From positions 13,319,904 to 13,383,903 of the forward strand of contig NC_057719.1 in the NCBI RefSeq assembly GCF_004010195.1: 64,000 nucleotides of DNA, in the 5' to 3' direction. Every line of letters starts with the position of its first letter. Within the stretch, counting starts at the first letter, position 1. Of the stretch, positions 3,022-58,853 are shown one piece after another. The position numbers were made by a program, and so were the translations under genes. Below the pieces are notes generated by a model. That model did not search any database. It saw only the letters and a list, made by a program, of their open reading frames with translations, and was not told the origin of the DNA. Source of the DNA: Chiloscyllium plagiosum. Lineage: Eukaryota.

Positions 3022-3189
3022 ATGTGATGTTGGACTGGTCTGGACAAAGTCAGAAGTCTCACGACACCACATTATAATGTAACATGTTTATTTAAAATCA
3101 CAAGCTTTCAGAGTGCTGTTCCTTTGTCATGAAGATTATGATTTTAAATAACCTGTTGGACCTGGTGTCGTGAGACTTCTGACCTTGAC
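3022..3189. mobile_element. Fold-back PLE-derived element (family B), degenerate
   Basis: Arms gtcagaagtctcacgacacca / tggtgtcgtgagacttctgac; related to 23617-23810. Confidence 0.6.
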
Positions 3190-3420
3190 AAATGGCAATA
3201 ACAGAGGTCGCATCAAGGAATTCTGGTACAGAAACATGGGACAAACAGGGGTTGGAGGGGGGAAGCGGGTCTTGAATATTTTGGTTTAGAGTCAATCAGG
3301 AAATGCACAAGAGTAGCAAACCTAAGCATGAATGGAGCATCGCGAATCTTCAATTTCATGAGGGCTTCATAGATTGCTGCAGTACAGTCTGACCACCTCC
3401 TGCCACTGAGCCAACAGGAC

Positions 3421-3551
3421 AGCTCTGACAAAGTGTCATCTCGACTCGAAACGTTACCTAGCTCTCTCTCCATGAATGCTGGCTGACCTGCTGTGACCTC
3501 CAGCGTTTGGTATTTTCAGTACAGATTGCAGCACCTGCAGTAGTTTGCTCC
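3421..3551 (+). mobile_element. PLE-derived element (family E) with degenerate hammerhead motif
   Basis: ctgacaaagtgtcatctcgactcgaaacgtta followed by gctgacctgctgtgacctccagc; reverse copy at 36895-37025. Confidence 0.6.
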
Positions 3552-4186
3552 GACAGGGTGGGGTTGGGGAGTGATGGGTCCATGAGGAATTAAGCAGAAG
3601 ACATGGAGAAGGGACTCCATTGTGATGAAGACAGTGTTCAAGGACAGGCCGGTTTCAAGCAAAGTACCTTCCCCTGGACCTGTTGGCAAATGCAGTCTGC
3701 GCATTTGGGAATTACATTTGGGAATTGTTGTTCCTCCATGCAACCTAAAACACTATCTGCACATAAAAGAGAATGAAAGGCTTAGATTTATATGAATTTG
3801 GATGTCCTAAAGCGCTTGGCAGTTAATTAAGTCATTTTGAAGTCGAATCAATGTTTCAATGAGACAGTCCAATTTGCTCTCAGTAAACTCTCAGGTCAAC
3901 AACTCAGTTGAAAGTCAGGACCCCCTCCCCCCAACAGTTCAGTACTCCCAGATCAATGTACCAGCGGGCCAGGCCTGATTTTTGCATACAAGGTTTGGAG
4001 TGGGACATTAACACAGAACCTTGGAAGTTCAAGTGGAATTTGCTATCAATTGAATCACATCTAACAGTCAAGTAATCCCATTGTGCCAGTCTGTAACCTT
4101 CTCCTCAGAGGATGTAGACAACTGGAACTTAAGGATGTAAAGCTCACACCCCAGAATGATGCTGAGGGAGAGTTGTTAAAGCAGTG

Positions 4187-4553
4187 AATCATAGAATCTC
4201 CAGAGTGCAGAAAGAAGCCATTCGGCTCATCAAATCGCAGAAGAGCATCCCACCCTGTCTCATAACCTCGCATTTCCCATGGCTAATCCACCTAACCTGC
4301 ACATCCCTAAGTTCCCTGGGCAATTTAGCATGGCCAGTTCACCTAACCTGCACATCCCTAAGCTCTCTGGGCAATTTAGCTTGGCCAGTCCACCTAACCA
4401 GCACAGCTTTAGACTATTGGAGGAAACCAGAACACCCAGAGAAAACCCACACAGACACAGGAAGAACATGCAAACTCCACACAAACACCAAAACTGGAGT
4501 TGAACCTGGGTCACTGGCACTGTGAGGCAGCAGTGCTAACCATTGTGTCACCC
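4187..4553 (-). mobile_element. HE1-type tRNA-derived SINE with duplicated internal block
   Basis: Reverse complement of the tggttagcactgctgcctcacag head; repeated cacctaacctgcacatccct block. Confidence 0.85.
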
Positions 4554-4871
4554 ATACAGGATGCGATTGTTAGGATTTATTTCAGTAGCTCAGGACGTTA
4601 TTAAAAAAAAATTGCTTGGTGTTCATCCAGGAGGGAAGTTCTCCTTGGTTAACAATCCCTTAATCAAAACTACCATTCATTAATGCCTGACCAGAGTTAG
4701 AAATTGCAGAGAAGCAGGATAAAATATTGGGATTAGTCCATGTTTCATCGGAAATAAAACACCACTATGGACAGGGTTGCATTGAATGACTGATCGGTTT
4801 CCATGTTGTAACATCTATGCCAAAAAAAACAATACAAATTTGAATTTGGAAACAACTCTTCCAAACTAAAA

Positions 4872-5196
4872 GAGGAGGTGATAGCCTTAGTGGCAATATT
4901 GCTGGACTGTTAATCTAGCGATCCAGCTAATGTTCTGTGGAGACAGTAGATGGTGGAATTTGAATTCAATAAAAATCTGGAATTAAGTGTCTAATGATGA
5001 CCGTGAATCCAATGTCAATTGCTGGAAAAACCCACATGGTTCACTAATGTCCTTCAGCGAAGGAAATCTGCCATCTTCACCTGGTCTTGACTACATGTGA
5101 CTCCAGACCCACAGCAATGTGGTTGACTCTTTACCTGTTCTGGGCAAATAGAGTTGGGCTATAAATGCTGACCTAACCAGTGAGGTCCTCATCCTC
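4872..5196 (+). mobile_element. Second SINE family (tRNA-like head, LINE-derived tail)
   Basis: Core ggtggaatttgaattcaataaaaatctgg...gactccagacccacagcaatgtggttgactct; copies at 17065, 55683, 58280. Confidence 0.75.
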
Positions 5197-5683
5197 TTTA
5201 AGTTCTGATCTGACGTATTCTTAAGTTTACCTGTTTTCTTCAATCACTAATTCTGGTCAGGTAGTTTTGATTAAGGTATTGTTAACCAGGAGGTCAGGAG
5301 AAATTTCATCTTGGATGAACACCAGGACATCTTTTAATATTGTCCTGAGGTACTGAAACAGGTCCTCACCATATAAATAGCAAAATATGAAAGACAAGTG
5401 GCATTGGCATGATTCTTTTTCTTCTGTAGTCCTCAGATATAGAGTAAACTAAAAAATTGATCACTTCATCTTTGACAACAATATCTTTCCACTTATACAT
5501 CAATATGATTGCCTACTTGTTCTGTTCACTACCAACCCCAATGGAATAGCTGTGGCCTCTGATGTTTGTGCTGGGCTGGACTCACAATCATTGCCCGTGT
5601 AACCAGGACCAGAGACGTCAACCAATTCACGTAACTCTAGGTGTCTGCCAGAGAGGGGCGAGGGCCATATGTATCGTCTAGAT

Positions 5684-6199
5684 TTGGAGATGCCGGTGTT
5701 GGACTGGAGTGTACAAAGTTAAAAATCACACAACACTAGGTTATAAATCTGTGGTGTGAACTTATATGTTGTTTTGCTCAAAAACTGCAAGAATCCATGT
5801 AAGATTCTATAAATCCCTTTTTTAGATAAGAATCAGTCTGAACATTGGGGCACAGACAGCCTCACACAGGGCACCTCACACCTTCAATGCATTATCTGCG
5901 CTGACATGGCATCTATTGTTAAAGTTCACTTGCGAACGTAATTTTTAAAAAAGTTCTGAGATTTACATTTGAAAGAACTGAAACCATCATGGTTATTCTA
6001 AAAGATGAGCAATTTAACAAACAATCAAGGTATTTTTCAATATATCATTTCAGTTACATCACACTGTAAACTTATGCTATAAATTCTGTGTCTTATAATT
6101 GTCTCCTCTACAACCACCTGATGAAGGAGCAGTGCTCCGAAAGCTAGTGCTTCCAAATAAACCTGTTGGACTATAACCTAGTGTTGTGTGATTTTTAAC
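5684..6199 (+). mobile_element. PLE-derived element family A (~500 bp, inverted terminal arm, 3' hammerhead)
   Basis: 5' arm gttaaaaatcacacaacactaggttata is inverted at the 3' end; body homologous to 31620-32088. Confidence 0.8.
6115..6149 (+). ncRNA. Minimal type I hammerhead ribozyme motif (family A)
   Basis: CAC-CTGATGA-a-GGAGC-agt-GCTCC-GAAA-GC-TA-GTG: core, stem I, stem II and palindromic AGCT all present. Confidence 0.7.
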
Positions 6200-8250: not shown

Positions 8251-8288
8251 CTAACCAATGTTAAGTGCATTATTTTTCAATCTCATTA

Positions 8289-8648: not shown

Positions 8649-8699
8649 TATATTGCCTTTCCTTTTGGATGAAATGTACTTTTCCCTTTGATGTAGTAA

Positions 8700-10849: not shown

Positions 10850-11007
10850 TGATCAGCATCATTTGGTGCATTTCCAGGATTAGTGTGGGGAGCTTCCAGC
10901 TCTTGAGAGTGCCTTGTTAAGGCTGAATAAACGGGGACTGAAAAGAACCAGGCTTAAAATAAAGTTAACGATTGGAGCACCCAACACCACACACTGTTTG
11001 GTAACTG

Positions 11008-11217
11008 TCAAGATTAGAGTGGTGCTAGAAAAGCACAGCAGGTCAGGCAGCATCAGAGGAGCAGGAAAATTGATGTTTCGGGCAAAAGCCCTTAATCAGG
11101 AAGGGCTTTGCCCGAAATGTCGATTTTCCTGCTCCTCAGATGCAGACTGACCTGCTGTGCTTTTCCAGCACCACTCTAATCTTGGCTCTAATCTCCAGTA
11201 TCTGCAGTACCCACTTC
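11008..11217. mobile_element. Fold-back PLE-derived element family C with 16-bp TSD
   Basis: TSD cactgtttggtaactg at 10992-11007 and 11218-11233; ~90-bp inverted arms meeting at overlapping hammerhead remnants. Confidence 0.9.
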
Positions 11218-12430
11218 CACTGTTTGGTAACTGCCAAAGCCGCACTATGAGATATTTTCAAGGAAACACTTCCAAGGTCTAGTCTTTATTGGACTCAGCA
11301 TTACTGCTCATGTAAAACCATCCAGGTCAATATTAATTGCAGTTATCACTGCCTATTATAGTCCCTCTACAGCAGAAAAGCTGCAGGAATCCTTGAACAC
11401 AAGAGAAGATTTGGCAACAGTTGATTTTGGGATAAGAACAGTCCATAGAATCGGAATGTGAAGATCAAAGCTACAAATGTCTTTGGAGCTGCTTCTGTTT
11501 TGCTGTTGTAACATTTCCCAGAGCCTGGAAATAAAGCTTTTGCCAGGGTACAGTCTCTTTTGAGCTAGAGATCTATTGGAGCAATTACAGCTCTGAGCTG
11601 TGCATTTAATTTGCAATGCGATCATTGACATCACCTTACCTGTCAACAAAGTGAAGCTAGATTGGAACTTGGAACAGAGTCTATTTTACAGCAAGCAGAG
11701 TGATTTAAACAGCCTTTACACATCACAGAAGGTCAGATCTACATACACCACAGCAAACATTCCTCATGACTGATACTACAGCATAGCCTCCCAATAAAAG
11801 ATTAACTCTCCAGCAAAATGCACTGAGTGGATGATAGTTATATAAGTTATTTGCACAAACCAATCTAGTCATCTCATTCATCCTCATTCTGGCCAGGACT
11901 GTGTTGCCAATATTTGCAGCCATTTCAAAATGTTTTCCTACTCTAATATCAGTGGCAGAGACAGTCGTTTCAACTTTTAAACTTTAAAGACAATTAATGC
12001 TTATTTAATTTGCAAATCACAAAGGAACGATGCTAACACTAATGTGGAGATTAATTTAATAACACCCTTCCCTTATAAAGCATTGATGGGACATTCTAAT
12101 GTGAGATGTGAGGACTGTGACTTTTACTTTTTGCATTTTACAAAAGCTGTGGATAGAAATTAGAAAGAACCATTTTAAAACCATTGTTTGAAAGGCTCGA
12201 TGTATGTTTTGAAAGCAAGCAACATTGAAGGCTTTCTGCAAACAACTGTGAGACCAAGCAGTAATCGAAGTTTGACTTGCAGATGATTTGGAGCCAAAAG
12301 AGTCGAACAGATCCAGCATTTTCTGGCAATGAGAAGCTAATTGGTCTAAGGACTAGTGACCAGTTAACAATGACAGAGACCTTGCTTTCTGCAAACAACT
12401 GCATAAATGAATCTCAGGCAATATTCATGA

Positions 12431-12620
12431 TTTGGAGATACCGGTGTTGGACTGGGGTGTACAAAGTTAAAAATCTCACCACACCAGGTTATAGTCCAAT
12501 CGGTTTATTTGGAAGCATTGGCTTTCGGAGCGTTGCTCCTTCATCAGGTGGTTCATCAGGAAGGAGCAGCACTCTGAAAGCTAGTACTTTCAAATAAACC
12601 TGTAGGATTATAACCTGGTG
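12431..12620. mobile_element. Fold-back family A element
   Basis: ggtgttggactggggtgtacaaag arm; minus-strand hammerhead core at 12523-12547 with mutated cleavage site. Confidence 0.85.
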
Positions 12621-12954
12621 CTATCAGGCAACAGAACAGCTTGCAGCTAGGAATACATTGCAGAGAGAGAGAGAGAGAGGGAGGTGTTCTGTTCTTTCCC
12701 AGATTGGGAGAGGTTTCCCTGTTCTCTGTCATCAGAGCTCACTGTAATACTGAAGAAAATCAGATTATCACTCCTGCAACAGTTGTTATGAGCTCTAACT
12801 TTGAACTTATAAATCTGAGACTCGTTATTAATGAGCCGGTCACTTTGTGTTTCTTACTGACCAGAGGAGGCGTCTGGGGGAAAGACAACTGAAGCAACAT
12901 GCTGAAGAGTCTTAAAGATCAACCTGGGGGTGGTGTGTGTGTGTGTGTCACGCT

Positions 12955-13300
12955 ACCTGCAGCTTGAGTCAAACCACATGGAATCAATGTGGATTTCACC
13001 AGTTTCCTCATTTCCCCTCCCCTCACATTATCCAACCTTCCAACTTGGCACCACCCTCTTGAACTGTCCTACCTGTTCATGTTCCTTCCCACTTATGAGC
13101 TCCAACCTCCTCTCCGACCTATCACCAATGCTCTCACCTCCATCTACCTATTGCATTCTAAGCTATCTCCTCCACCCCAGCCCCCTCCCATGTATCTCTC
13201 TACCCCCTTGGCTCACAAGCCTCATTCCTGATGAAGAGTGTATGCCCCGAAAAGTCGATTCTCCTGGTCATTGGATGCTGCCTGACTGACTGGCACCACA
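12955..13300 (+). mobile_element. PLE 3' fragment ending in family C arm
   Basis: HGINVDFTSFLISPP-like C-terminus, C-rich UTR, cctgatgaagagtgtatgccccgaaaagtc. Confidence 0.7.
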
Positions 13301-13785
13301 TTCTTCGACTTGCTACTGAGGGCAATGTTCTATTCTCTTCCTCAAAAAAATGATATGGAAATTTTATGCAGTTTCTATGACAACACACAACGTGTATAAA
13401 AACCTAAAAACACAAAGTTAAGATTGACCGGGCTGAACATTGCTGACCAGAGATGTAAGAGGTCAGTGAGCCCATCCTGACCTCATCAGAAACACTATTT
13501 TTAAAGGCTGTCTCTCCCTTTGTCTATATAGATAACTTAATCTCATCCACCAGTCACTTGTATCGTCAATGGTCAATGAAGATACATACTATCAGCTGCG
13601 GTTAATGGTACTTCAGATATTATCAACTGTTCTGATCTTGGTGGAGTACATCACCACATGGCATAGCTGAAGCTGTTAGGTTTCAGACCATTGCTGTTAA
13701 CATCCAGCCAAACACTTTTTGTCCTTTGATGTTCTAACACCTTTAGAGGATTCCTATGCTAAAATAATTTATGTTCATGGAGAGT

Positions 13786-13885
13786 CGCAGACGAAAAGTG
13801 TGGCGCTGGAAAAGTACAGCAGGTCAGGCAGCATCTGAGGAGCAGGACAGTCAACATTTCGGGCATAAGCCCTTCATCAGGAATG
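13786..13885 (-). mobile_element. Family C single arm
   Basis: gctggaaaagtacagcaggtcaggcagcatc...tttcgggcataagcccttcatcagg. Confidence 0.8.
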
Positions 13886-14267
13886 TACTCCAAGTGGGGT
13901 CTAACCAGAGCTTTGAACTCTGTATTGGGCTCTATCACGCCACGCCCCTTCCAATCGATTGGAATCAAGTTTTGTGTTTAACTGTTCAATCCTGACACTG
14001 TAGAACAAAGCTCAGAAATGTTCTCCACACTAATACAATTGATTGACAAAATAGAAAAAGAAGGTGAGCCTTCCTCAGACAGTCCATCAACCTATCGAGG
14101 ATAGATTTGAGAAAATTGCTGTAATGTTGAAAGATATCACTTGAACATTTCAAACAAACCTACTCTCAAGACTCAGTGCTTTCACAACAGTCTGTCAAGG
14201 ACCCTATAGTAGGTCTTGTCACAGCAACCCTTGATTAATAGTAGCTGACAGCTCTGCATTGCCAGTC

Positions 14268-14495
14268 CTCGCGGTGGCGCAGTGGTTAGCAGTGCCTCAC
14301 AGCGCTAGGGAACTGGGTTCAATTCCAGTGTTGGACAACTGTCCGTATGGAGTTTGCACATTTTCCCAGTGTCTGCGGGGGGTTCCTCTGGGTGCTTCAG
14401 TTTCCTCCCACAGTCCAAAGATGTACAGGTTAGGTGGATTGGCCATAGTGTTTGGGGATGTGTGTGTTTGATGCATTAGTCAGGGGAAATGTAAA
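14268..14495 (+). mobile_element. HE1-type SINE
   Basis: ggtggcgcagtggttagc head; gggttcaattcc B-box. Confidence 0.8.
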
Positions 14496-14785
14496 ATCTT
14501 CATCTCAGTCCTAAATGATCGGCCTTGGAATTGTGCCCTTGTATTGAGATTGTTCAGCCAGGAGAAGCAACCTCTCAGCGCCCACCCTGTCAAGCCCCTT
14601 CTGAATTCTACACGGTTCAATGTCATCATCTCGCCAAGGAATTAAGGTGCAATTTACTCAGCATCTCATATTGGGGACAAGTCTCACATTCCAATAATCA
14701 ATCTAGTAAACCTTCACCATCAGAAAATGTCTGCTCCTTTCAAAATTCAGCCATTAATTGTACACTATCCTTGCATAAGGGCTGA

Positions 14786-15034
14786 TACAGTGAAGGAGAA
14801 AGTGAGGACTGCAGATGCTGGAGATCAGAGTCAAAAGGTATGGTGCTGGAAAAGCACAGCCGGTCAGGCAGCATTGAGGAGCAGGAGAGTTGATGTTTCA
14901 TCAGGAATGTTGAAGATCTTATGTTCAAACGTCGATCCTCCTGCTCTTCCGCCTGACTGACTGTGCTCTTCCAGCACCATGCCTTTTGACTCTGATCTCC
15001 AGTATCTGCAGTCCTCACTTTCTCCTTCACTGTA
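14786..15034. mobile_element. Fold-back family C element
   Basis: tacagtgaaggagaaagtgaggactgcaga... / ...tctgcagtcctcactttctccttcactgta, ~85-bp arms. Confidence 0.85.
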
Positions 15035-15094
15035 ACAGCCCCTACTCAAAGGTAGTGTACAATAAATGGCTCAGGTTTGAAAAGAGCAGACAAA

Positions 15095-15419
15095 TAGAGA
15101 TGCCAGCTCAGCACTGTCCTCATGACCTGTCCTACCTGCCAATCTCCCCTCCCATCTATCCGCTCCATCCTCCTCTCTGACCTATCACCTCCATCCCCAC
15201 CCCCATTCACCTATTGTACTCTCTGCTACCTTCTCCCCAGCCCCAACCCCCCTATTTATCTCTCCACCCTGGAGGCTCCCTGCCTCTATTGCTGATGAAG
15301 GGCTTTTGCCCAAAACATCTCTTTTCCTGCACCTTGGATGCTGCCTGACCTGCTGTGCTTTTCCAGCACCACTCTAATCTAGACTCTAGTTTCCAGCATC
15401 TGCAGTCCTCACTTTTGCC
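15095..15419 (+). mobile_element. PLE 3' fragment with family C arm
   Basis: C-rich UTR, then ctgatgaagggcttttgcccaaaac. Confidence 0.75.
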
Positions 15420-23616: not shown

Positions 23617-23810
23617 TGGAAATGCTGGTGTTGGACTAGGTGGATGAAGTCACATGACACCAGATCATAGTTCAACAGGTTTATTTGAAATCACAAGCTT
23701 TTGAAGTGCTGCTCCTTCATCACCTGGCGAAAGAGCTGTGCTCTGACAGCTTGTGATTTCAAATAAACCTGTTGGACTATTACCTGGTGCCATGTGACTA
23801 CTTGTCCTGT
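23617..23810. mobile_element. Fold-back family B element
   Basis: Arms aggtttatttgaaatcacaagct / agcttgtgatttcaaataaacct around degenerate hammerhead cores. Confidence 0.75.
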
Positions 23811-24204: not shown

Positions 24205-24380
24205 AACAAAACAGAAATTGCAGGAAAAGCTCAGCAGGTCCTGCAGCATCTGTGAAGGGTCACTGGACCCGAAATGTTAACTCTAATTTCTCTTCACGGA
24301 TGCTGCCGGACCTGCTGAGCTTTTCCAGCAATTTCCATCGTTGTTTCTGATTTCTGGCATCAACCGTTACTTTGTTTCTT
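24205..24380. mobile_element. Fold-back PLE-derived element family D
   Basis: gaaaagctcagcaggtc / gacctgctgagcttttc arms; gaagggtcactggacccgaaatgtta stem II plus GAAA. Confidence 0.65.
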
Positions 24381-30915: not shown

Positions 30916-31619
30916 ACCACCCCAACTCAAAATATGTCAATATCTTCATTTAATTTTTAAGCATGCGCTTAGAAACAGAAGCTTTTTTAAGATCCCAGAA
31001 TGGAAAAAGACAGATGTTAGGAGTCTAAAAATTGAACTGGAGCAGTTTATTGCAAATGCAATTTTTTGGATAAAACAGTGGATGGAACATGGGAGAATTT
31101 CAAAAGGGAGATGAATAGGGTGGAACTCAGTGCATAGGCATAAGAAATAAACACGGAGCTAGGCAACCCTGGATGACTCAGGATATTGATCAGAAAATAG
31201 GGAAGAAAAAGAAGGCATTTTATGCATACCAGAGTAATAACGGTGGTAGACATCAGGAAGAGTATCTCAAGCACAGGAGAGAGGCTAGGGTTGGAAGAAG
31301 GAAGGCTAAGAGGAAGCATGAGGAAAGGATGGCAGGCTGTGCTAAAACAAATAGTCAAATGTTCTTCAAACATATTAATACTAAAAGATTGGTGAAGGAT
31401 AGTGTGGGGCCCATAAGGAAGAAGTGGGGTAAACTGCTCATGAAGCAACGGATATGGCGGAGATGCTGCATGAATACTTTGCTTCTATTTTAGCAAATGA
31501 GAAAATGGTGACAAATAGCCCAGTTGAAACTATGGGTGTTGAGCGACTGAGTAGTGTAATGGGAGATAAAGAAGAGGTGCTAAAAATGCTGGCATCACAG
31601 ACACACACACACACATATA

Positions 31620-32088
31620 CGTTTGTGGGATGAATTTATACTTTGCTCAAAAACTGTATGAATCTGTGTAAGACTCTGTGAACTCACTTTTTAGATTAGA
31701 ATCAGTCTAAACATTATGGCACAGACAGGGAACATAGGGGGCTAACACCTTCAACATCTTACCTGCGCTGACACCAATTGTTACAATTAACCTGAGAATG
31801 TAACTTTTAAAAAAGGTTTTGTGATTTACATATGAAAGAACTATCATGGTCATTCTAACAGATGAGAGACTCCACAAACAATCAAGGTATTATTTAATGT
31901 ATAATTTCAGTTACATCACACTGTAAACTTTTGCTATAAATCCTGTGCCTTACAATTGTGTCCTTCACAACCACCTGATGAAGGAGCGTCGCTCCGAAAG
32001 CTAGTGCTTCCAATTAAACCTGTTGGACTATAACCTGGTGTTGTGTGATTTTTAACTTTGTACACCCCAGTCCAACACCGGCATCTCC
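31620..32088 (+). mobile_element. Family A element with complete 3' arm
   Basis: Homologous to 5684-6199; ends ...tccaacaccggcatctcc. Confidence 0.85.
31972..32006 (+). ncRNA. Minimal type I hammerhead ribozyme motif (family A)
   Basis: CAC-CTGATGA-a-GGAGC-gtc-GCTCC-GAAA-GC-TA-GTG. Confidence 0.75.
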
Positions 32089-32936
32089 TACCCCCTAGGT
32101 AGGATGTTTGCTAAAGGGGGAAAGGATAACCCTGTAAATTACAGGCCTGTCAGCTTGACATCAACTGTGGGAAAACTGATGGAGGCCATAATATAAGATA
32201 AATGTACACTCAGAGAAAAATAAGTTAATGCGAGACAGTCAACATGGCTTTGTCAAGGCAGGTCAAGTCTGACAAATTTCATTGAGTTCTTTGATGAGAT
32301 TACACAGAAGTGAATGAGGGGAGTGCTATAAATGTTGTATGTTTGAGCTTTCACATGGCAAGTTGGTTAGCAAATTAGAAATGTTTGAGATCAATGGGTC
32401 CTTGGCAGCATTGATTAGAAATTGGCTAAACGATAGGTCACTGATGGTAGGTGTAGATGGTTATTTTTCAGATTGGAGATGATTTGAAAATGGCGTTCCC
32501 AGGGAATGGTGTTGGGTCAATTGTCTTTTCTGATTTATATAAATGATTTGAGATGGGTATTGAGGGCAAAATCTCTAAATTTGCAGATAATACTAAGCTA
32601 GGGAGAATAGTGAATTGAGGATGACACTAAGTGACTTCAGAAGGATATTGACAAGTTGGTCAAATGGAGAGACACCCATGCAGATGAATTTCCATGCAGA
32701 GCAATGCAAGGTAATGCAATTTTGTAGAAGAAATATCGAGAGATAATGTAGGCTCATTGGTACAACCCTGAGGGGGGTGCATGAGCAGAGGGACCTCAGG
32801 GTTCACCTGCATGATTGTCTGAAGATGGCCAATTGTTAGGAAGGTTTATAGGATCCTTGGGTTTAGAAATAGATGCACAGAGTATAAGAGCAAGGAAATC
32901 AGGCTATGCCTGTACAAATCATTGGTCAGACCACAT

Positions 32937-33686
32937 GGATGTCGGTGTTGGACTGGGGTGTACAAAGTTAAAAATCAGGGTCTAGATTAGAGTGGTGCTG
33001 GAAAAGCACAGCAGGTCAGGCAGCATCCAAGGAGCAGGAAAATCGATGCTTCTGGCAAAAGCCCTTCACCAGGAATGGAGGCAGGGTGCCTACAGAGTGG
33101 AAAGTTAAAAATCACACAACACCAGGTTATAGTCCAACAGGTTTAATTGGAAGCACTAGCTTTCGGAGCACCGCTCCTTCATCAGGTGGTTGTGGAGGAT
33201 ACAATTGAAAGGCACAGAATTTATAGCAAAATTCATCACACTGTAAAGTTTTGCTATAAATTCTGTGTCTTACAACTGTGTCCTCCACAACCACCTGATG
33301 AAGGAGCAGCATTCTGAAAGCTAGTGAGGTTAGATTCCCTACAGTGTGGAAACAGGCCCTTTGGCCCAACCAGTCCACACTGACCCTCTCAAGAGTAACC
33401 CACCCAGACCCATCCCCCTCTGACTAATGCACCTAACACTATGAGCAATTTAGCATGGCCAATTCACCTGACCTGCACATCTTTGGACTGTGGGAGGAAA
33501 CTAGAGCACCCAGAGGAAACACAGGGAGAATGTGCAAACTCCACACAGACAGTCACCTGAGGATAGAATCGAACCTGGGACCCTGGTGCTGTGAGGCAGC
33601 AGTGCTAACCACTGAGCCACCGTGCCACCCCAACTGCTTCCAATTAAACCTGTTGGACTATAACCTGGTGTTGTGTGATTTTTAAC
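32937..33686. mobile_element. Fold-back family A element with nested family C arm (32978-33100) and HE1-type SINE (33327-33630, minus)
   Basis: 14-bp TSD aaagttaaaaatca at 32964-32977 and 33101-33114. Confidence 0.85.
33154..33188 (-). ncRNA. Minimal type I hammerhead ribozyme motif on the host sense strand
   Basis: Reverse complement CAC-CTGATGA-a-GGAGC-ggt-GCTCC-GAAA-GC-TA-GTG. Confidence 0.75.
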
Positions 33687-33794
33687 TGTGTTCAGTTTTG
33701 GTCACCTTACTTAAGGAAGGATATTAAAGCCCAGGAGAGAGTTCCAAGGGGATTTACTAGAATGATAGCAGGAATGAGAGGTTTAGATACAAGC

Positions 33795-34090
33795 TCTCAG
33801 GAAGATGAAAGGCTCTGGCCCGAAACGTCGACTCTCCTGCTTCTCGGATGCGGCCTGACCTGCTGTGCTTTTCCAGCACCACACTCTCAGCTTTTAGAGC
33901 TGAAAAATGTGTTGCTGGAAAAGCACAGCAGGTCAGGCAACATCCAAGGAGCAGGAGAATCAACGTTTTGGGCATAAGCCCTTCTTCAGGATTCTCCTGC
34001 TCCTTGGATGCTGCCTGACCTGCTGCGCTTTTCCAGCAACACATTTTTCAGCTCTGATCTCCAGCATCTGCAGGCCTAACTTACTTCCCT
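33795..34090. mobile_element. Cluster of family C arms/fold-back
   Basis: gcccgaaacgtcgactctcc...; gagctgaaaaatgtgttgctggaaaagc / gcttttccagcaacacatttttcagctc. Confidence 0.8.
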
Positions 34091-35340: not shown

Positions 35341-35664
35341 ATATTGTGAAATTCTATGATTTATTGGGCGAGACAGGACTAGTGGGCTCAATGCTAATGT
35401 CTGGATCAGAAAGTCTGGGTTCAAGTCCCGCTTATCCCCAGAGCTATGTCATAACATGTTTGAATTAATTGACTTAGAATACATTTACAACTCAGTCTGT
35501 TCCAATGCTGTAGGGATTCTATGATTCTATGATTGAGGATGAGCATCTTTCACTTGGGACCATCATTAAGATTGGGTTGCATGTGTCCAGAGCTCCTAAG
35601 CCAGAAGAAGGCCTTATTAAGAAGTTCTTTATCCAGTCTTGTTTTGCACTAATCTCCATTTTCA

Positions 35665-37045: not shown

Positions 37046-37153
37046 CTGATTAGGAGATTTGACAACCATCTGATGAAGGAGCGTCGCTCCGAAAGCTAGT
37101 GCTTCCAATTAAACCTGTTGGACTATAACCTGGTGTGGTGTGATTTGTAATTT
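37046..37153 (+). mobile_element. Family A mini-insert with 12-bp TSD
   Basis: TSD tgtggaggagga at 37034-37045 and 37154-37165. Confidence 0.85.
37067..37101 (+). ncRNA. Minimal type I hammerhead ribozyme motif (family A)
   Basis: CAT-CTGATGA-a-GGAGC-gtc-GCTCC-GAAA-GC-TA-GTG (U-G wobble in stem I). Confidence 0.7.
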
Positions 37154-37244
37154 TGTGGAGGAGGAAGCATTAATGCGACAGCTAGGGGTGCAGGGATGTG
37201 GAGTGCTTGGGGGTAAAAAAGATGTTGATTGTTCAAATTAAGTT

Positions 37245-38527: not shown

Positions 38528-38753
38528 GTGGAGTTTAATTCAGATAAATATGAGGTGCTGCATTTTGGGAAAGCAAATCTTAGCAGGACTTATACACTTA
38601 ATGGTAAGGTCCTAGGGAGTATTGCTGAACAAAGAGACCTGGGAGTGCAGGTTCATAGCTCCTTGAAAGTGGAGTCGCAGGTAGATAGGATAGTGAAGAA
38701 GGTGTTTGGTATGCTTTCCTTCATTGGTCAGAGTATTGAGTACAGGATTTGGG
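38528..38753 (+). mobile_element. CR1 fragment running into assembly gap 38754-39614
   Basis: EFNSDKYEVLHFGKAN... Confidence 0.9.
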
Positions 38754-41817: not shown

Positions 41818-42818
41818 GACCACCTAGTAATCTCCCAGTCTGGCATGGCAGTCTCCTGGCCTGGCCTGGTGATCTCCCAGTCTGGCATGACCGTCTCCTG
41901 GCCTGGCCTGGTGGTCTCCCAGTCTGGCGTGACCGTCTCCTGGCCTGGCCTGGTAATCTCCCAGTCTGGTGTGACCGTCTCCTGGCCTGGCCTGGTGGTC
42001 TCCCAGTCTGGCATGACCATCTCCTGGCCTGGCCTGGTGGTCTCCCAGTCTGGCGTGACCGTCTCCTGGCCTGGCCTGGTAATCTCACAGTCTGGTGTGA
42101 CCGTCTCCTGGCCTGGCCTGGTCATCTCCCAGTCTGGTGTGGCCGTCTCCTGGCCTGGCCTGGTGGTCTCCCAGTCTGGTGTGACCGTCTCCTGGCCTGG
42201 CCTGGCCTGGTGGTCTCCCAGTCTGGTGTGGCAGTTTCCTGGCCTGGCCTTGTGGTCTCCCAGTCTGGTGTGACCATCTCCTGGCCTGGCCTGGTGGTCT
42301 CTCAGTCTGATGTGGCCGTCTCCTGACCTGGCCTGGTGGTCTCCCAGTCTGGTGTGGCAGTCTCCTGACCTGGCCTGGTGGTGGCCTGGCCTGGCGAGGC
42401 AGTCTCCTGACCTGTGATGGTGGCTTTCAGCAGTATGTTGCAGTCTCTCAGCCCAGCGCGGTGTTTCTTCAACGGCCCATGATGGTCTTTCGGCCCAGTG
42501 AGGCCTCAGTGTGGACCTCCGGCCTCGAAGTAATTCCAGAGTGGTCTCCCAGCCTTGAGAGCCTCAGGGTGAAGTTTGGTAGTCTGCAGTCAAGGCCTAT
42601 TGCAGTCTGGGGGCTTAGTGCCATGTGGAAAGGGTTGGAAGAATTGTTATTCTGAACTTTTCATTTCTTGATTTTCGAATTTTTTTCCCAAATAACTTGT
42701 ACTGAAGTATCTATACCTTGGTACCTTGTACCTGAGATGAGCCATAAGTGGCGACTTGTGAACTTTTCACTGTACTCATGTGAGTACATGTGACAATAAA
42801 GCAAATTCAATTCAATTT
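41818..42818 (+). mobile_element. Composite non-autonomous retroposon: 42-bp VNTR, unique body, AATAAA/(AATTC)n tail
   Basis: 10-bp TSD aattcatctt at 41808-41817 and 42819-42828; tail gtacatgtgacaataaagcaaattcaattcaa. Confidence 0.65.
41828..42412. repeat. 42-bp GC-rich VNTR, ~13-14 copies
   Basis: Unit ctcccagtctggcgtgaccgtctcctggcctggcctggtggt. Confidence 0.95.
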
Positions 42819-43082
42819 AATTCATCTTATCTCTAAGACTCCTCTGCCATTAACCTATTAAACCATTGTCTCTTCTATTCTGTCCCCAATGCTGCCTGAC
42901 TGTAAAATGTTGCTTTGCCCCCTTCTGTGGGCTAGTCTAGAATGAGAGGTCAGGGTAAGAGATCAGGATAGTTTCAGGATAAGGGGTGACAGATTTAAAA
43001 CAGAAGTGAGAAGATTGTGAGAAGATTTGTAGCTCGGGTGCTCGTTGCTGTGGTTCTGTTCGCCGAGCTGGAAGTTTTTGTT

Positions 43083-43122
43083 GCAAACGTTTCGTCCCCT
43101 GTCTAGGTGACATCCTCAGTGC
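43083..43122 (-). ncRNA. Identical hammerhead motif in the inverted arm (host sense strand)
   Basis: Exact reverse complement of 43362-43401. Confidence 0.8.
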
Positions 43123-43361
43123 TTGGGAGCCTCCTGTGAAGCGCTTCTGTGGTGTTATAGGGCAGGCGAAACAAAGAACAGCCAGGGAATTCCTAGAAGC
43201 TTGGCACTCATCCACAAACTCCATCAACAAACACATAGACCTGGACCCAATATACCGGCCACTACAGCGGACAGCTGAAACTGACAAGCGGAAGCGGCAG
43301 GGACAGGCTACTATAAATGCCGGAGGAAACACCACAGAAGCGCTTCACAGGAGGCTCCCAA

Positions 43362-43401
43362 GCACTGAGGATGTCACCTAGACAGGGGACGAAACGTTTG
43401 C
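43362..43401 (+). ncRNA. Minimal type I hammerhead ribozyme motif (PLE pLTR)
   Basis: GCA-CTGAGGA-t-GTCACCT-agac-AGGGGAC-GAAA-CG-TT-TGC. Confidence 0.8.
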
Positions 43402-44559
43402 AACAAAAACTTCCAGCCAGGCGAACAGAACCACAGCAGAAGTGAGAAGAAATTATTTCTCTCAAATTCTCTCAATCAGTGCATTTCACAATCCCAGAGT
43501 GCAGTGAATGCTGGGTAAATTTAAGGGGGAGGTAGACAGAGCTTTAATGAGCCAAGGGTTGAAGTGTTATGGACAATGGGTAGGAAAGTGGAGTTGAGGC
43601 TGAGATGATGATTGCATTAAATGGCAGATCAGGTTCAAGGGGTTGAACTGCCTCATTCTGCCCCTCTTTCAGTTGTTGTTAGCATTACTCTCCACAGTTT
43701 CATACATCTTCAAAAATTAACAAACCCATGTAAGCTTGTTAAATTCTGGCAAATTCTTCTCCAATCTCCTCAAAGTCCTTGAACCTTTTAAGTTTTAATT
43801 TCATGTTCTTTTTCTCAAGTGAATCTCTAGGCCTAACCTCACAAAGGGCACTCTCCATCCTTCTGAACCTCTCCGCAATCTTTGGTGCAGTGAACCACAT
43901 CGAATCCAGAAACGAAACTAGCTTTCTGATCAATTTGCCACCAAGGCGTGTTTACTTGGAGGCATGAGTGAAGTGTTAGTGTATGTGCACATCATGACCT
44001 TTCCATTCACATTGTGAATGACTGGAGGAGCTGTGGTTTAAAGAAAGGAATCCCTTGTCATACGATAGAGCTCACAAGATCTCCAAGGAAGTGAAAATCT
44101 TTAACCTTTTGCGAAATATATTGGATTGATTGACTCTGAAAAAAAAACAAGCCTTCCCTTCATTTTCTGCAGGTGTGACATTTGCCTTCAAGTTAAGCGC
44201 ACCCCTTTATCACCAGAACAAGCCTGTCTTTTTTGCAGGAGGGTTTAATAAAGTTGGACTGGATGACCGAAGCTACGGTAGGCTGAAGCTGACAAAATGC
44301 ATCAAAGTTATTGCATTTTACTTCAAGCAGAAATAAACAAAAAGGAATGAAACCAGCATCCGGCTGTCTGGAAGTTGAGGAACTACTACGGACGAAAACT
44401 TCAGTCTCTGAAACACAGAGCTGAAGAACCTTCAACCATAAACCGATCAGAAAGATCAGATGTACCATGGCCTGGTGACAGGGAAATCCTACTGGGGTAA
44501 ACAACTTGATCATGGGGTTGCGACTGGAATTCCTCGGCCCCTTTTCTGCATTCATATTT

Positions 44560-44909: not shown

Positions 44910-45041
44910 TGTTGAGAGTGTGGTGCTGGAAAAGCACAGCCAGTCATGCAGCATCCAAGGAGCGGGAGAATCAGTCTCCTGCTCCTTGGATGCTGTCTAA
45001 CTGGCTGTGCTTTTCCAATGTCTGCAGTCCTCACTTTCTCC
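44910..45041. mobile_element. Short fold-back family C element
   Basis: gaaaagcacagccagt...gcagcatccaaggagc / gctccttggatgctg...ctggctgtgcttttcc. Confidence 0.75.
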
Positions 45042-49056: not shown

Positions 49057-50297
49057 GAGGCTGAGGGGTGAGTTTATAGAGGTTTATAAAATCATGAGGG
49101 GTAAATAGATAAGGTATTTTCTCTGGAGTGGGGGAGTCCCAAACTAGAGGGCATAGATTTAGGATGAGAGGTGAAAGATTTCAGAAGGACTTAAAGGACA
49201 ACTTTTTCATACAGAGGGTGGTGTGTGTGTGTGTATGGAATGAGTTGCCAGAAGAAATGGTGGAGACAGGCAGGAGGCTGGAAGAACACAGCAAGCCAGG
49301 CAGTATCAGGAGGTAGAGAAGTCGATGTTTCGGGGGTAACGTTTCTTCAGGACTTTGGGTGGGTGTAGGGGGAGCTGCAGATATAGGGGGTGGAAGGGGG
49401 AAGGTGGTGAAGTGGGGATAGGTGAAGACAGGTAGAGGGTATGACCTGGTTGGTCAATGGGAGGAATGAAACTGGTTGGTGGGAAGAGTAGAAGGGAGAG
49501 AGAGGGGCTGGGAGGGGAGTTGGTGGATGGGAAGAGAGGTTAATTGAAAACAGAGAACTTAGTGTTGAGTCCTCTCGGCCGTAGGCTGCCTAGGTGGAAG
49601 ATGAGGTGTTGTTCCTTCAACTTGCGGTTTGCTTTGTTGTGGTAATGGAGGAGGCCAAGGATGGTCATGTCGGAAAGGGAGTGGGAAAGGGAATTAAAAT
49701 GGGTGCTGACTGGAAGGTCCGGTCAGCCTCTGTGGGCCCAGCTGAGATGCTCCGCAAACAGTTCCCTATGTTCACGTTCGGTCTCCCTGATGTAGAGAAG
49801 ACCACATTGGGAGCACCTGATGCAGTGACCTAGGTTGGCAGGTGAACTTCTGTCTCACCTGGAAGGACCATTTGCAGCTCTGGATGGGGGTGAGGGGGGT
49901 GGTGTACTGGCAGGTTTTGCTTCTTTGAACCCCTAGGCACCTTATCCTGCAACCGGAAAAGATACAAAACCTGTTGGCATGCCACCAACCAGGGCCCCAA
50001 ACAATCCTTCCAGGTGAGACAGAGGTTCACCTGTCTCTCCTCCAGCCTAGTTTATTGTATCTGGTGCTCCCGATGAGGTCATGAAACATCGACCTCTCTA
50101 CCTCCACAGGACGTGGTGGAGACTGGTACAATGACAACATTTAAAAGGCATCTGGATGAGTATGTGAATAGGAAGGGTTTGGAGGGCTCTGGGCCAGATG
50201 CTGGCAAATGGGACTAGATTAGTTTAAGATACCTGGTCGGCATGGACGGGTTGGAGCAAAGGGTCTGTTTCTGTGCTGTACATCTCTATGACTCTAA
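49057..50297 (+). mobile_element. CR1 3' end interrupted by a PLE fragment (~49268-50113, mostly minus)
   Basis: tggtggagac duplicated at 49258-49267 and 50114-50123; minus-strand KLKEQHLIFHLGSLRPRGLNTKFS-like peptide. Confidence 0.75.
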
Positions 50298-51207: not shown

Positions 51208-51745
51208 AGGAGAAAGTGAGGACTGCTGATGCTGGGGATCAGAGTTGAGAGTGTGGTGCTGGAAAAGCACAGCCGGTCAGGCAGCATCTGAGGACCTGGA
51301 CAGTCAACGTTTCTAGCATAAGCTCTTCATCGGGAATAAGGCTAAAGGACTGAGAGATAAATGGGAGGGGGTTGCGGCTGGGGGGGAAGGTAGCTGAGAA
51401 TGAGAGAGTGACTGAGATCCTTGTAGAAAGAGGAGGAGAACTTCGTCAAGGTATGATTCGGAGATGCCGGTGTTGGACTGGGGTGTACAAAGTTAAAAAT
51501 CACACAACAGCAGGTTATAGTCCAACAGGTCTAATTGGAAGCATACTAGCTTTCGGAGCGACGCTCCTTCATCAGGCGATCCTGTGCTTTTCCGGCACCA
51601 CACTCTTGACTCTGATCTCCGACATCTGCAGTCCTCACTTTCCCCCAGTTGATTACTGCGAAGCCTCTTCCAAGGATGTCTACCTTGAAGAAGTTCTCCT
51701 CCTCTCTCTACAAGGATCTCAGTGCGTCCAATATTTAAACAGTTC
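51208..51745. mobile_element. Nest of family C and family A arms
   Basis: Family A arm 51459-51576 with minus-strand hammerhead core 51551-51575. Confidence 0.8.
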
Positions 51746-52094: not shown

Positions 52095-52440
52095 GCACTG
52101 AAAACAAAAGAAGTGCTGGAGATCACAAGGGGACTGGCACCATCTGAGGCGTGAGAGCAAGCTAACATTCCAAGTCTAGCTGATGCGTCATCAGAGCTGA
52201 CTTGAAACGCCGAGAGACACCATATATGTAATAGTTGGGGGGGGGTGTCTAATCACAGCGCAACTGGAGGAACAACATCTCATCTTCAGACTAGGCATTT
52301 TACAACCTTCTGGAGTTAATACTGAATTCAGTACCTTCAGATTGTGGAGCGACTCCCATTCCTTTAGCTTTACTTGTTGCATTCTCCATCACCATGTCCT
52401 CTCTCCCCTCCCCCCACTCCAATGGGACTGTCCATTCTTT
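52095..52440. mobile_element. PLE fragment (family E-like arm plus C-terminal peptide)
   Basis: QLEEQHLIFRLGILQPSGVNTEFSTFR on the plus strand at ~52261. Confidence 0.65.
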
Positions 52441-53864: not shown

Positions 53865-55420
53865 CGTAAAAGCAGGACAAATCCAACCCGGCTAATTACC
53901 GCCCCATCAGGCTACTCTTGACCATCAGTAAAGTGATGGAAGTTGGCATCAACAGTGCTATCTAGCAGCACCTGCTCAGCAATAACCTGCTCAGTGATGC
54001 CAAATTTGGGTTCTGCCAGGGCCACAGGCTCCTGACCCCATTACAGACTTGGTTCAAACCTGGGCAAACGAGCTGAATTCCAGAGGGTAAGGGGAGAGTG
54101 ATAGCTCCTGACATCAAGGCCACATTTGACTCAGTGTGGCATCAATAAGCCCTAGTAAACTGGAGTCAATGGCTATCGGGGCAAACTCTCTGGTAGTTGG
54201 AATCATACGTTGCATACCTAGGAAGATGGTTGTGGTTATTGGAGGTCAGTGATCTCAGCTCCAGTGCATCCCTGCAGGAGTACTTCAGGTTAGTGTCCTA
54301 GGCCCAACCACCTTCAACTGCTTCATCAATGACCTTCTCTCCATCATATGGTCAGAAGTGGGGATGTTTGTTGATGATTGCACAATGTTCAGCAACATTC
54401 ACGACTCTTCCAATACAAGCAGTCCATGCTCAAATGCAATGCGATCCAGACAACATTCAGGCTTGGGTTGACAAGTGGCAAGTAAAATTTGTGCCATGCA
54501 AATGCCAGGCAATGATCATCTCCAGTGAGACAATCTAATCACTGCCCCTTGACATCCAATGGCCTTAGCCATCATAATCCCCTACTATCAATGTCCTTTG
54601 GGTGATGAGTGAGTGGAAATCCAACAGGACTCACCACATAAACACAGTGGAGAAGGTGAGGACTGCAGATGCTGGATATCAGATTGACAAGAGTGGTACT
54701 GGAAAACCATAGCAGGTCAGGCAGCATCTGAGGAGCAGGACAGACAACGTTTCAGGCATAAGCCCTTCATTAGGAATTCCTGATGAAGGGCTTATGCCTG
54801 AAATGTTGATTCTACTGCCTCTTGGATGGTGCCTGACAGGCTGTGCTTTTCCAGGACCACACTTTTCGATATACACAATGGCTACAAGACATGATCAGAA
54901 GCTAAGAATATTGCATCGAGTAATTCACCTCCAAAGCATATGCATCATCAACAAAGCACATGACAGGAATGTGTTGCAATATTCCCACAACACTCAAAAC
55001 TCTTGGCACCACATCCAAAAACATCCACTCCCTTCACCACTGGAGCTCAGTAGCAGCACTGCGTACTATCTACAAGATACACTATAGAAATTCACTAATG
55101 ATCCTCAGACAACACCTTCAAAATCCATGACCATTTCCATCTCAAGGACAAGAGCAGCACATACATGGGAAAACCACAATCTGCAAGTTGCCCTCCAAGC
55201 CACTCACCATCCTGATTTGGAAATATATCACTGTTCCTTCACTGTTGCTGGGTCAAAATCCTGGAATTCCCTCTCTAATGGCATTGTGGGTCAACCCACA
55301 GTACATGGACTGCGGGGGTCGAAGAAAGCGGCTCACCACCACCTTTTCATGGGCAACAAGGGATGGGCTATCAATGCTGGCCCAGCCAGCCACACCCACA
55401 TCCCACTAATGAAGTAAAAA
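53865..55420 (+). mobile_element. CR1/L2-clade LINE (second family), RT to 3' end, decayed
   Basis: KQDKSNPANYRPI, FGFCQG, SVLGPTTFNCFINDL, WVDKWQVKF; tail shared with second-family SINEs. Confidence 0.88.
54649..54868. mobile_element. Fold-back family C element with back-to-back hammerhead remnants
   Basis: ttcaggcataagcccttcattaggaattcctgatgaagggcttatgcctgaa palindrome; ~13-bp TSD ataaacacagtgg/atatacacaatgg. Confidence 0.85.
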
Positions 55421-56060: not shown

Positions 56061-56224
56061 AAGTTTTTTAGAAGTCATTGCATATCACTAGCAACGGGAG
56101 CAGAATTTTCCTTCCTGTGTCGGCAGATTATCAATCAGTCAGCCACAGATTGAAGAGTGAGTTCAGAAGCAGGGGCATCTTTAAAAAAAAATATATTAAT
56201 GGGATGTGGATATCATAAGGTCAT

Positions 56225-57605
56225 CATTTGTTGGCCATCACAAAACGTTGATGTGTGGGTGCAGCAGGTATTTAAGAAGGCAAAATGGAATATTGTTCTT
56301 CATTGCTAGAGAGATAGATTTTAAAAGCAGGGAGGTTACGGTGTAGCTGTATAGGGGGCTGGTGGGGCCACACCTGGTGTGCTGTGTCACAAAGCTTTTT
56401 TCCTAAAAGCTGTTCCTTGACTCAAGGTGACTCTGTCCTTGATTTTCCTCAGAGGGGTAATAAACCAGGTCAGGCTCCGATCAGTCTGGTTTGGTACAGA
56501 GAAGAAAAGGATCTTGAGAGGCCTTTTGTTTATATGCAAACAGATGAGACTTCAGATCAAAGTGGTCATGTTTTTAGAAGTGACCTGTATAATGAAAGGG
56601 GAGTGGTCAGCTCTCTAGATGAGCAGTTTTAGTTCAGTCCTGACCTGATGAGAGGTTCAATAGTGATCTGTTGTCTCTCTTTTTTTCTCTCTCTTTTCTC
56701 TGCCTCTTAACTTCAACCTGTAAGCATGTGTTCCATTTATACTGGTTTTTAAAAGGAGTTTGCTTATTGGGACTGTTGTATATATTTGGAACAGCATAAT
56801 TAAATCTTGTTTGAATAGACTGAGTTCTGTAGGGGTGTCTTATTTTGTTCTTTGTGTCTCCTTGTATAATTTTGGAATAAAGTTTTGTCTGTTTTAAAAT
56901 CTAGTAGTTAACCTAGCTAACTTAATCCGGGTAATTTTCACTGTACACTTACAAATTGCAAAGTTGATCGGGTCTGAGCTGCATGTTTAAGAATGTTTTG
57001 AGTGGTCTGACTTAGTTCATAACAACTGTGTGCAGTTTGGGTCTCCTTAATTGAGAAAGGATGTACTGACACTAGAGGGGGTGTAGAGGAGGTTCACCAG
57101 ATTGATTCTGGAGCTGGGATGATTGGCTTATGAGGAGAGATTGAGCTACGACTATACTCTTTGGAATTTTGAAGAATTTGGCGGGGGTGGGGGACCGTAC
57201 AGAAACATATAAAATTCCAAAGGGAATTTATTTGATAGAAGCAGGGACATTCTTTTCACTGGCGGGTGAGACAAGAACTAGGGGGCATAGCCTCAAAAGA
57301 AAAGGGAGCAGATTTAGGACTGAGTTAAGGAGAAGCATCTTCTCCTAAAGGGTTGTGAGTCTGTGGAATTCCCTGCCCAGGGAAGCAGATGAGGTTACCT
57401 TCTCGGATGAGTTGAAGGCAAAGACAGATAGAGTTTTGAACAGTAAAGGTATTAAGGGTTATGGTGAGTGGGCGGGTAAGTGGAGCTGAGTCCATAAAAA
57501 GCTCAGCCATGATCTTATTGAATGACGGAGTCGGCTCAATGGGCCAGTAGACTCGATGGGCCAGATGGCCTCCTCCTGCTCCTAATTCTTATGTTCCTAT
57601 GTTCA
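56225..57605 (+). mobile_element. CR1 3' fragment split by a solo LTR
   Basis: LVGPHL | VQFGSP; (TTCCTATG) tail. Confidence 0.85.
56385..57024 (+). mobile_element. Solo LTR (Gypsy-like), 640 bp
   Basis: TGTCACA...ATAACA ends; 4-bp TSD gctg/actg; AATAAA near 56876; removing it restores the CR1. Confidence 0.8.
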
Positions 57606-57808
57606 TGCCTATTTGCTGAATGCTCTTGGATGCTACCCAATTGTAAAATGAAAACTGTACAAACAAACACATCCTTCAAATTCATTCCTCCCTCCTTTCC
57701 CCAACAGACTCCCCATGTCAGTTCATGCCATCTCATGCCCTTCTCCCCAACCTGATGGCCTGTGTTTCCTCCATGTTAACTCATGTTAATGTTGCTTGAT
57801 CCTTACAC

Positions 57809-57950
57809 CACACCCTCCTCTATTCCTGATGAAGGGCTTTTTCCCGAAACATCGATTTCCCTGCTCCTCAGATGCTGCCTGACCTGCTATGCTTTTCCAA
57901 TACCACTCTAATCTAGACTCTGGTTTCAGCATCTGCAGTCCTTGTTTTTA
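57809..57950 (+). mobile_element. Family C single arm with hammerhead core
   Basis: ttc-CTGATGA-agggctttttccc-GAAAC-ATC; TSD ccttacac at 57801-57808 and 57951-57958. Confidence 0.8.
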
Positions 57951-58279
57951 CCTTACACTCTCTATGCCAACTCACCCAGTTCATGGTCAGACCTCTATTT
58001 TATTTCACTTCACAATTGCTAAATTTTAAATATCTATTCCTGACTTCACTATTCATTAAAAATTGTATTATTGATGAAAAGATTAAATCCCTTTAAGTAC
58101 TGAATCCCTTGTAAAAATGTTTCCTTCCAAACAAATATTTGCATTTGTAGCTCCACATCAAAGACTGCTAATCTTTTTATAATCATGTGGATCTGTCCAC
58201 AAGCTTCCCCCACTGTGATGATGATAGGTTTTAAAAGCAATCAAATAGCTTTCTTGTGTCAAAGATCAGTGAAAGCGCA

Positions 58280-58853
58280 GGGGAGGCAATGGTGAAGGTA
58301 GTGATATTATGACTGGCCAGTTAATCCAGAGTAGACAGGCTGAAGGCTGGAAGAACACAGCAAGCCAGGCAGCATCAGGAGCTGGAGAAGTTGACGTTTC
58401 AGGTGCTGATGTAGGGTTACGCTCAAAACGTCAACTTCTCCAGCTCCTGCTGCTACCTGGCTTGCTGTGTTCTTCCAGCCTTCTGCCTGTCTACTCTGGA
58501 TTCCAGCATTTGCAGTTTTTTGTCTCTGTTAATCGAGAGACCCAGTTAATGTGCTGGGAGCATGGGTGTGAATCCTGCCATGGCAGATGGTGGAATTTGA
58601 ATTCAATAAAACAAAACCTGGAGTTAAGAGTCGAATGATAACCATGAATCCATTACTCATTGTTGGGAAAAACCCATCTGGGTCACTAAATCTTTTTAGG
58701 GAAGGAAACAGCCATCATTATTCAGTCTGGTCTGCATGTGACTCCAGACCCACAGCAATGTGGCCAATTCTCAACTACCTGCTGGTCAGTTAGAGATGGG
58801 TAATGAGTGTTGGCCTAGCCAGTGATGCCCACATCCCCAGGAATGAATAAAAA
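58280..58853 (+). mobile_element. Second-family SINE with nested fold-back family F element (~58331-58527)
   Basis: TSD gttaatccagag/gttaatcgagag; arms ggctggaagaacacagcaagccagg / cctggcttgctgtgttcttccagcc. Confidence 0.85.

Follow-up and report, generated by a model that had tools for sequence, protein, structure and literature searches.

Short inserts with minimal hammerhead motifs in a stretch of Chiloscyllium plagiosum DNA as probable truncated ends of Penelope-like elements

We propose that the short inserts scattered through a 64,000-nucleotide stretch of the Chiloscyllium plagiosum genome (NC_057719.1, positions 13,319,904 to 13,383,903, forward strand; this whole stretch is called the window, and its positions are counted from its first letter) are 5'-truncated end pieces of at least five coding Penelope-like elements (PLEs). 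Each piece consists of a pseudo-long terminal repeat (pLTR) and a tail and carries a minimal hammerhead ribozyme (min-HHR) motif, and the inserts are likely dead-end products of the insertion of short cDNA by the reverse transcriptase (RT)/GIY-YIG protein of the parent element, an explanation that we consider highly probable.

About two dozen inserts of 60-800 bp in the window carry the published metazoan min-HHR motif, CUGANGAH-stem II-GAAA-palindrome-NUH. A family-blind descriptor of the motif, which tolerates one extra nucleotide 5' of stem II (a strict regular expression without it finds 3 window sites only), recovers 6 window motifs with a perfect core, stem II and palindrome, compared with none in any of 20 Markov shuffles, and 48 in a larger sample, compared with 0-2 in 10 shuffles. 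This sample consists of five regions of the 3.56 Gb assembly, one of them centred on the window, and totals 664 kb, of which 639 kb is non-N. With fuzzy family probes and inspection, 31 motif positions are listed in the window, and all core letters and the palindrome are kept at 8 of them, namely the family A cores at 6118, 31975, 33185, 33295, 37070 and 51575 and those of family P (the 43-kb copy) at 43119 and 43365. None of the window arms of families C, D and E has the full core and palindrome, the CpG in ACGT or CGAAA is lost in many of them, and most copies are broken and likely inert. An Rfam scan of the window gave 19 matches (18 of microRNA type and 1 small nucleolar RNA), all under the gathering score, and did not call a hammerhead, in line with an earlier interpretation of this DNA made without database searches (the sequence-only reading), which held that routine annotation would miss these motifs.

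That reading had described one architecture shared by more than 20 inserts, which is borne out, as are its stem II pairings of GGAGC/GCTCC (A), GGGC/GCCC (C), GGGTC/GACCC (D) and GTCACCT/AGGGGAC (the 43-kb copy), to which a fifth family, E, adds GGGT/ACCC, with motifs at 49350 and 58406. It omitted, however, the additional nucleotide that follows position 9 and precedes 10.1, which is A in the representatives but U in that of P, and the one A by which GAAA and the palindrome overlap, which is the first letter of the palindrome. The palindromic 15.1-16.1 segment is AGCT in A and ACGT in C, D, E and P, and the monomer has no helix III. The 3-bp stem I of the sequence-only reading is found in A and P but not in D and one C subfamily (4 bp) or in the common C subfamilies (2 bp, a U.U and 1 bp). 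Among representatives of A, C1, C2, D and P the CUGANGA and GAAA core with U16.1-H17 is identical at 11/11 letters, and stem II starts with G and ends with C (G10.1-C11.1) in 5/5, whereas the flanks share 2-7 of 20 letters in the A-C, A-D, A-P, C-P and D-P comparisons. An identical core between stems and flanks that differ from family to family points to selection in active parents. After insertion the core decays as fast as its neighbouring sequence and is unselected: outside CpG sites, core conservation in C (n = 77) is 0.92 against 0.94 for the tail, and in A (n = 33) it is 0.88 against 0.92, and the core and palindrome are kept in 26/123 C arms and 15/45 A arms of the sample.

The motifs are tied to PLEs by coding sequence upstream of them. 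In family A a single 437-aa frame (L052:3505-4815) holds an RT (YIDD), a C-X4-C-X2-C linker and GIY-YIG about 650 nt before the motif at 5469, and a second locus, L051, matches RVT_1 with 39.8 bits. In family C, RT and GIY-YIG lie upstream of the motif in L152, L156, L158 and L159, in L158 within one frame spanning a gap, and the A and C proteins are 28% identical. Family D is an old family; of 30 loci selected for the 3' untranslated region (UTR), 15 have a GIY-YIG end some 270 nt upstream, and L253 has an RT remnant, while no upstream open reading frame (ORF) was found in 30 D loci selected by motif alone. Family E is linked within the window, where a coding remnant (49546-49839) is followed by a C-rich UTR and the motif at 49350. 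The 43-kb copy of family P encodes an endonuclease C-terminus (54,394 first-look candidates in the genome), has its ATG where stem II begins, 28 nt ahead of the cut, and lacks the Cys linker, which occurs in the A and C frames and one D remnant and partially in E. For P and D the coding sequence consists of fragments only. We provisionally class A, C, D and E as Neptune-type and P as Poseidon-like from the linker, the position of the ATG and sequence motifs rather than from a tree. [quoted passage not shown] Hence the claim that the genome is dense in PLE-derived minimal type I hammerheads of dimer-type architecture stands, with A, C, D, E and P all linked to coding PLEs; that the inserts are non-coding does not hold for 43154-43378 and 49546-49839, which encode GIY-YIG ends.

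The structure of the insertions was examined in the sample, where arms were detected via the downstream tail (209, or 207 after removal of two duplicates). The density of one arm per 3.1 kb (207 in 639 kb) agrees with the one insert per about 3 kb estimated previously, and the arrangement as inverted pairs is likewise upheld, as adjacent arms of the same family comprise 43 head-to-head, 2 tail-to-tail and 2 direct cases. One long and one short tail are present in 37 of 43 A/C pairs, and counted from C3 of the core as coordinate zero, the 3' ends form two clusters 30-40 nt apart, which in C lie near +85-92 and +122-127 and in A near +82-89 and +111-121. Target-site duplications (TSDs) of 10-20 bp, with a mode of 14, flank 29/50 pairs and 13/105 solos versus 7/465 controls. 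In the window they are present, as claimed, at 9/25 hand-bounded intervals, with a range of 8-20 bp instead of 10-16 bp, and a nested copy (32977-33109) has one of 14 bp. Junction coordinates are distinct in 40 of 40 sampled close pairs, the modal -4/-4 junction occurring 802 times genome-wide, and the pairs are thus independent 5'-truncated insertions rather than a self-propagating fold-back family or tandem retrozymes. Neither are the inserts a SINE-like (short interspersed element-like) family of fixed structure, with these distinct junctions and a truncation series continuous into coding sequence. The window units are as follows, with the strand given where one is assigned; they were bounded by hand, as automatic arm pairing mis-joined a few units (e.g., 13778-15026).

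3022..3185, head-to-head pair of the old A-like (B) type; its hammerhead at 3130 (-) is degraded.
5683..6199 (+), family A inverted tail arm and 5'-truncated pLTR; intact core 6118.
11007..11216, family C fold-back pair; TSD of about 20 bp, both cores damaged.
12428..12622, family A fold-back pair; 8-bp TSD.
12972..13292 (+), family C solo and 3' UTR; degraded motif 13228.
13778..13885 (-), solo of family C that begins at -5, with an intact core and a mutated palindrome (13880).
14794..15026, family C fold-back pair, degraded; inverted symmetry (14787-15037) reaches about 10-14 nt past both tails, and a direct TSD was not found.
15112..15419 (+), family C solo and 3' UTR; 15-bp TSD.
23618..23800, fold-back pair of the old A-like (B) type.
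24205..24375, family D fold-back pair; motif 24250 degraded.
31616..32089 (+), family A solo pLTR; intact min-HHR 31975.
32938..33690, family A head-to-head pair; cores 33185 (-) and 33295 (+).
32977-33109, nested family C copy in the tail of the preceding pair; 14-bp TSD.
About 33330-33633, unrelated SINE-like insert in the same A pair, located 3 nt beyond the other arm's cut site.
33790..33892 (+), family C solo; core broken.
33896..34085, family C pair; inverted arm begins at the cut site (+28), 15-bp TSD, G12 mutated; the whole tail prolongs stem I into a long helix with the mutated hammerhead at its tip.
37062..37156 (+), family A short solo; intact min-HHR 37070, 12-bp repeat 17 nt upstream.
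43011..43438, Poseidon-like (P) pair; 14-bp TSD, intact motifs 43119 (-) and 43365 (+).
43154-43378, GIY-YIG C-terminus within the P pair; ORF ATG at the stem II start.
44911..45040, family C tail-only fold-back without a hammerhead core; 20-bp TSD.
49264..50079 (-), family E copy with a GIY-YIG remnant (49546-49839), a 3' UTR rich in C and a motif (49350) that is degraded.
49936-50079, inverted coding piece in the family E copy.
51208..51709, cluster; C solo (51333, -) and A solo with intact core (51575, -).
51583-51709 (+), tail of family C that continues into the following unit's 5' part, in the same cluster.
54649..54870, family C fold-back pair; zero-gap GGAATTCC junction (-4/-4).
57813..57950 (+), short solo of family C with a TSD of 8 bp.
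58323..58527, family E fold-back pair; 12-bp TSD.

Further PLE endonuclease remnants lie at 37934-38218 (-), 52249-52338 (+) and 603-680 (-), two of them Neptune-like and one Poseidon-like, with no recognisable downstream hammerhead. Two minisatellites (28 bp x 24 copies at 28548-29228 and 42 bp x 13 at 41831-42382) are unrelated to the hammerheads. Many fragments in other repeats, including 34927-35448 and 38519-38753, have translations resembling the ends of CR1/L2-type long interspersed elements.

The mechanism that we infer for these structures begins with a staggered cut by the endonuclease, with an offset of 10-20 bp, after which each nicked strand would prime RT at one of two internal start sites in the tail. 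Synthesis of cDNA would mostly stop at the 5' edge of the hammerhead, and two cDNA ends joined head to head would give a pair and one joined to the target a solo. Selection would have kept the hammerhead in the parents, where cleavage would require a dimer or the help of protein. In inserted copies it is unselected, and in fold-backs a long hairpin is predicted to enclose it. Folding of four fold-back strands in which a core can be recognised predicts full or nearly full pairing of that core in each of them, and as the two motifs of a fold-back also lie on opposite strands, an inverted pair does not make a dimer ribozyme. According to the literature, cleavage by min-HHRs is weak in multimers or else takes place with protein, and insertion in vitro does not require it.

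Several observations weigh against this explanation. A gap-free full-length parent was not recovered in the genome searches, the assembly having N gaps there (the long open frames are mostly N gaps), and the Pfam GIY-YIG score is below the cutoff for C (20.3 vs. 22.6 bits) and absent for A and P, whose GIY-YIG call rests on motifs and pairwise similarity. Subfamily B has no separate ORF link, the representatives used in the between-family comparison were chosen for intact cores, and other parts of the genome do contain a few true head-to-tail arrays. There is also a pile-up of 5' ends: 55/117 C arms begin in -8..+5 (mode -4) compared with 4 and 14 in the flanking 14-nt bins, and plain random truncation does not predict so sharp a peak (arms lacking a usable alignment or lying beside N are omitted, which reduces C from 123 to 117 and A from 45 to 44). 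When aligned to a long copy, 477 contigs and 306 RNA reads have unlike letters before the -4 region, a count that comes in part from the diverged UTRs of subfamilies. The peak position coincides with the base (outer end) of stem I, and either the template RNA begins there or RT stalls there. Two origins were rejected: the cut site, which in C follows +27, as just 7/117 C arms start at +27..+33; and a spliced 5' exon, as no common upstream sequence is present (agreement 0.34-0.49). A cap-derived G was not found, G preceding ATTC in 5/21 solos. In an RNA run (X19, poly(A) single-cell, about 2% of the run) 1,902 reads were found, and in a second run (X20) none; those of X19 are similar in both directions over the motif and biased about 3-4:1 over the ORF; no RNA-start pile-up was seen at the base of stem I in this library, which is poorly suited to the question and cannot show cleavage ends. 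The reads over C coding sequence at L152:3480-4545 have this 3-4:1 direction bias, unlike the motif reads, which may reflect element-driven transcription.

The pile-up could be accommodated by a refinement of the explanation, in which a dedicated short RNA running from the stem I base (about -4) to the tail is the main template and is copied in trans by the PLE protein; this RNA could be the 5' end of the normal PLE transcript, copied from the more 5'-proximal of its sites of RT initiation, or else a short transcript of non-autonomous kind. We entertain it as possible. The C solos share the peak (25/53 in -8..+5), most D copies agree, as judged by eye, in just about 4 letters upstream (AGTT), each unit of the short arrays found elsewhere begins anew near -5, and the RT of the anole Poseidon element PAc initiates internally near the start of the ORF. 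However, a cap-type extra G is absent, the peak is weaker in A (12/44) and missing in P, all 3 arms of which are longer, the start of the D. virilis Penelope lies 46 nt plus a 75-nt intron upstream of Cervera's helix I point, RT stalling at a closed junction or at the upstream C-rich tract would leave the same footprint, and X19 gives it no RNA-start support, ill-suited as that run is. A fuller version, which we regard as doubtful, has the template start exactly at the stem I base and the two tail sites prime both nicked strands, such that an uncleaved hammerhead, possibly as a dimer that keeps two RNAs together, would mark the 5' boundary of the transposition RNA rather than act mainly as a cutter. 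It is improbable, in our view, that even the parental motifs lack ribozyme function and are instead a conserved signal for protein binding or translation that happens to look like a hammerhead. The monomers of A and P fold no more stably than shuffled sequences do (z -0.6 to -0.9), family C has a weak stem I, the motifs of P and D end in GUU, a poor cleavage triplet, and the published activity is low and not needed for insertion, as noted above; yet the 11/11 core, G10.1-C11.1 and the palindrome persist between families whose stems differ, and the homologous motifs of PAc and Schistosoma cleave with protein or as multimers.

The sequence-only reading favored a system of non-autonomous, retrozyme-like fold-back elements, that is, short units that self-cleave, circularise and re-insert as families of their own. 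Their very high copy number, the occurrence of non-LTR (non-long terminal repeat) retrozymes, proposed to be pLTR-derived, in one chondrichthyan according to the part consulted of 10.64898/2026.07.22.740005, and 161 genome hits (some overlapping) with two direct C motifs about 90-140 nt apart would fit such a system. Its proposal nevertheless is not supported by the present data and strikes us as very improbable, given that the tested families run into coding PLEs, the window has no tandem array of hammerheads, direct tandems number 2 in the sample, the junctions all differ, cut-site starts are few, the folded cores are paired, and inverted partners on opposite strands make a cis dimer impossible. 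What the data do show, simple 5'-truncations, is what that reading had named as lowering its novelty. The head-to-tail arrays found elsewhere, a rare minority in this genome, are a separate matter: L272 (G000:C6:10709900-10710900), L273, L274 and L275 contain 4-5 intact C hammerheads in units of 38-103 bp, the 38-54 bp units each restarting at about -5, and these four inspected arrays fit the working retrozyme definition of Li et al. (2026) and are natural candidates for dimer cleavage.

The genome-wide minimal-motif search that had been suggested gave 165,542 matches to a family-blind core pattern, which does not require stem II pairing, versus 247 in the control, and exact patterns gave 15,860 (A), 48,611 (C), 3,477 (P) and 165 (D), with no control matches for any of them. 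If the five sampled regions are typical there are roughly a million arms. This may be among the genomes richest in hammerhead motifs reported. The genome thus adds scale, with at least 165,000 intact-core motifs, and offers a large natural data set on the points at which reverse transcription of PLEs begins and ends, in which the 5' pile-up and the long/short asymmetry of the tails make the role of the PLE hammerhead directly testable. If the stem I-boundary template is correct, the copies are a fossil record of an unsolved step in PLE integration. A literature search, from whose scope Dfam, Repbase and subscription papers were excluded, found no report of PLE hammerheads in sharks, and the portion of the supplementary text and alignment of PMC4209133 that was covered includes no cartilaginous fish.

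The inserts closely resemble known systems. As far as the sections compared extend, the metazoan PLE min-HHRs of PMC4209133 have the same consensus (CUGANGAH-G...C-GAAAN-palindrome-NUH), the extra nucleotide after A9 and a short helix I, and likewise occur as several covarying families per genome, mostly as single motifs in truncated PLEs, and as opposite-strand pairs 100-700 bp apart; the numbers given there, about 4,000 in coelacanth and about 9,000 in Xenopus, compare with 165,542 here, with descriptors that are not identical. The passages compared on endonuclease-positive PLEs (PMC8557442, PMC3846280) describe the same strong 5' truncation, adjoining inverted copy, TSD and optional tail of 30-40 nt at one end, and do not describe a pile-up of 5' ends at the stem I base; the rotifer PLE examples have TSDs of 8-10 bp versus 10-20 bp (mode 14) here. 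The order of RT then GIY-YIG, the Neptune Cys linker and the Poseidon ATG at stem II are those of the Neptune and Penelope/Poseidon PLEs in the parts compared of PMC8557442, PMC3846280 and PMC11167929. In PAc the ATG is 26 nt before the cut, compared with 28 nt in P, the protein cuts and extends both strands, and its two internal RT start sites are matched by the two tail lengths found here. The animal non-LTR retrozymes, in the part consulted of 10.64898/2026.07.22.740005, are also non-coding pLTR-derived units with type I hammerheads, but they are head-to-tail units with complete hammerheads, whereas the window copies are dispersed solos or head-to-head pairs. Hence the pLTR min-hammerheads in these truncated PLE copies belong to a known class, described in 2014, and are present here at an unusual density.

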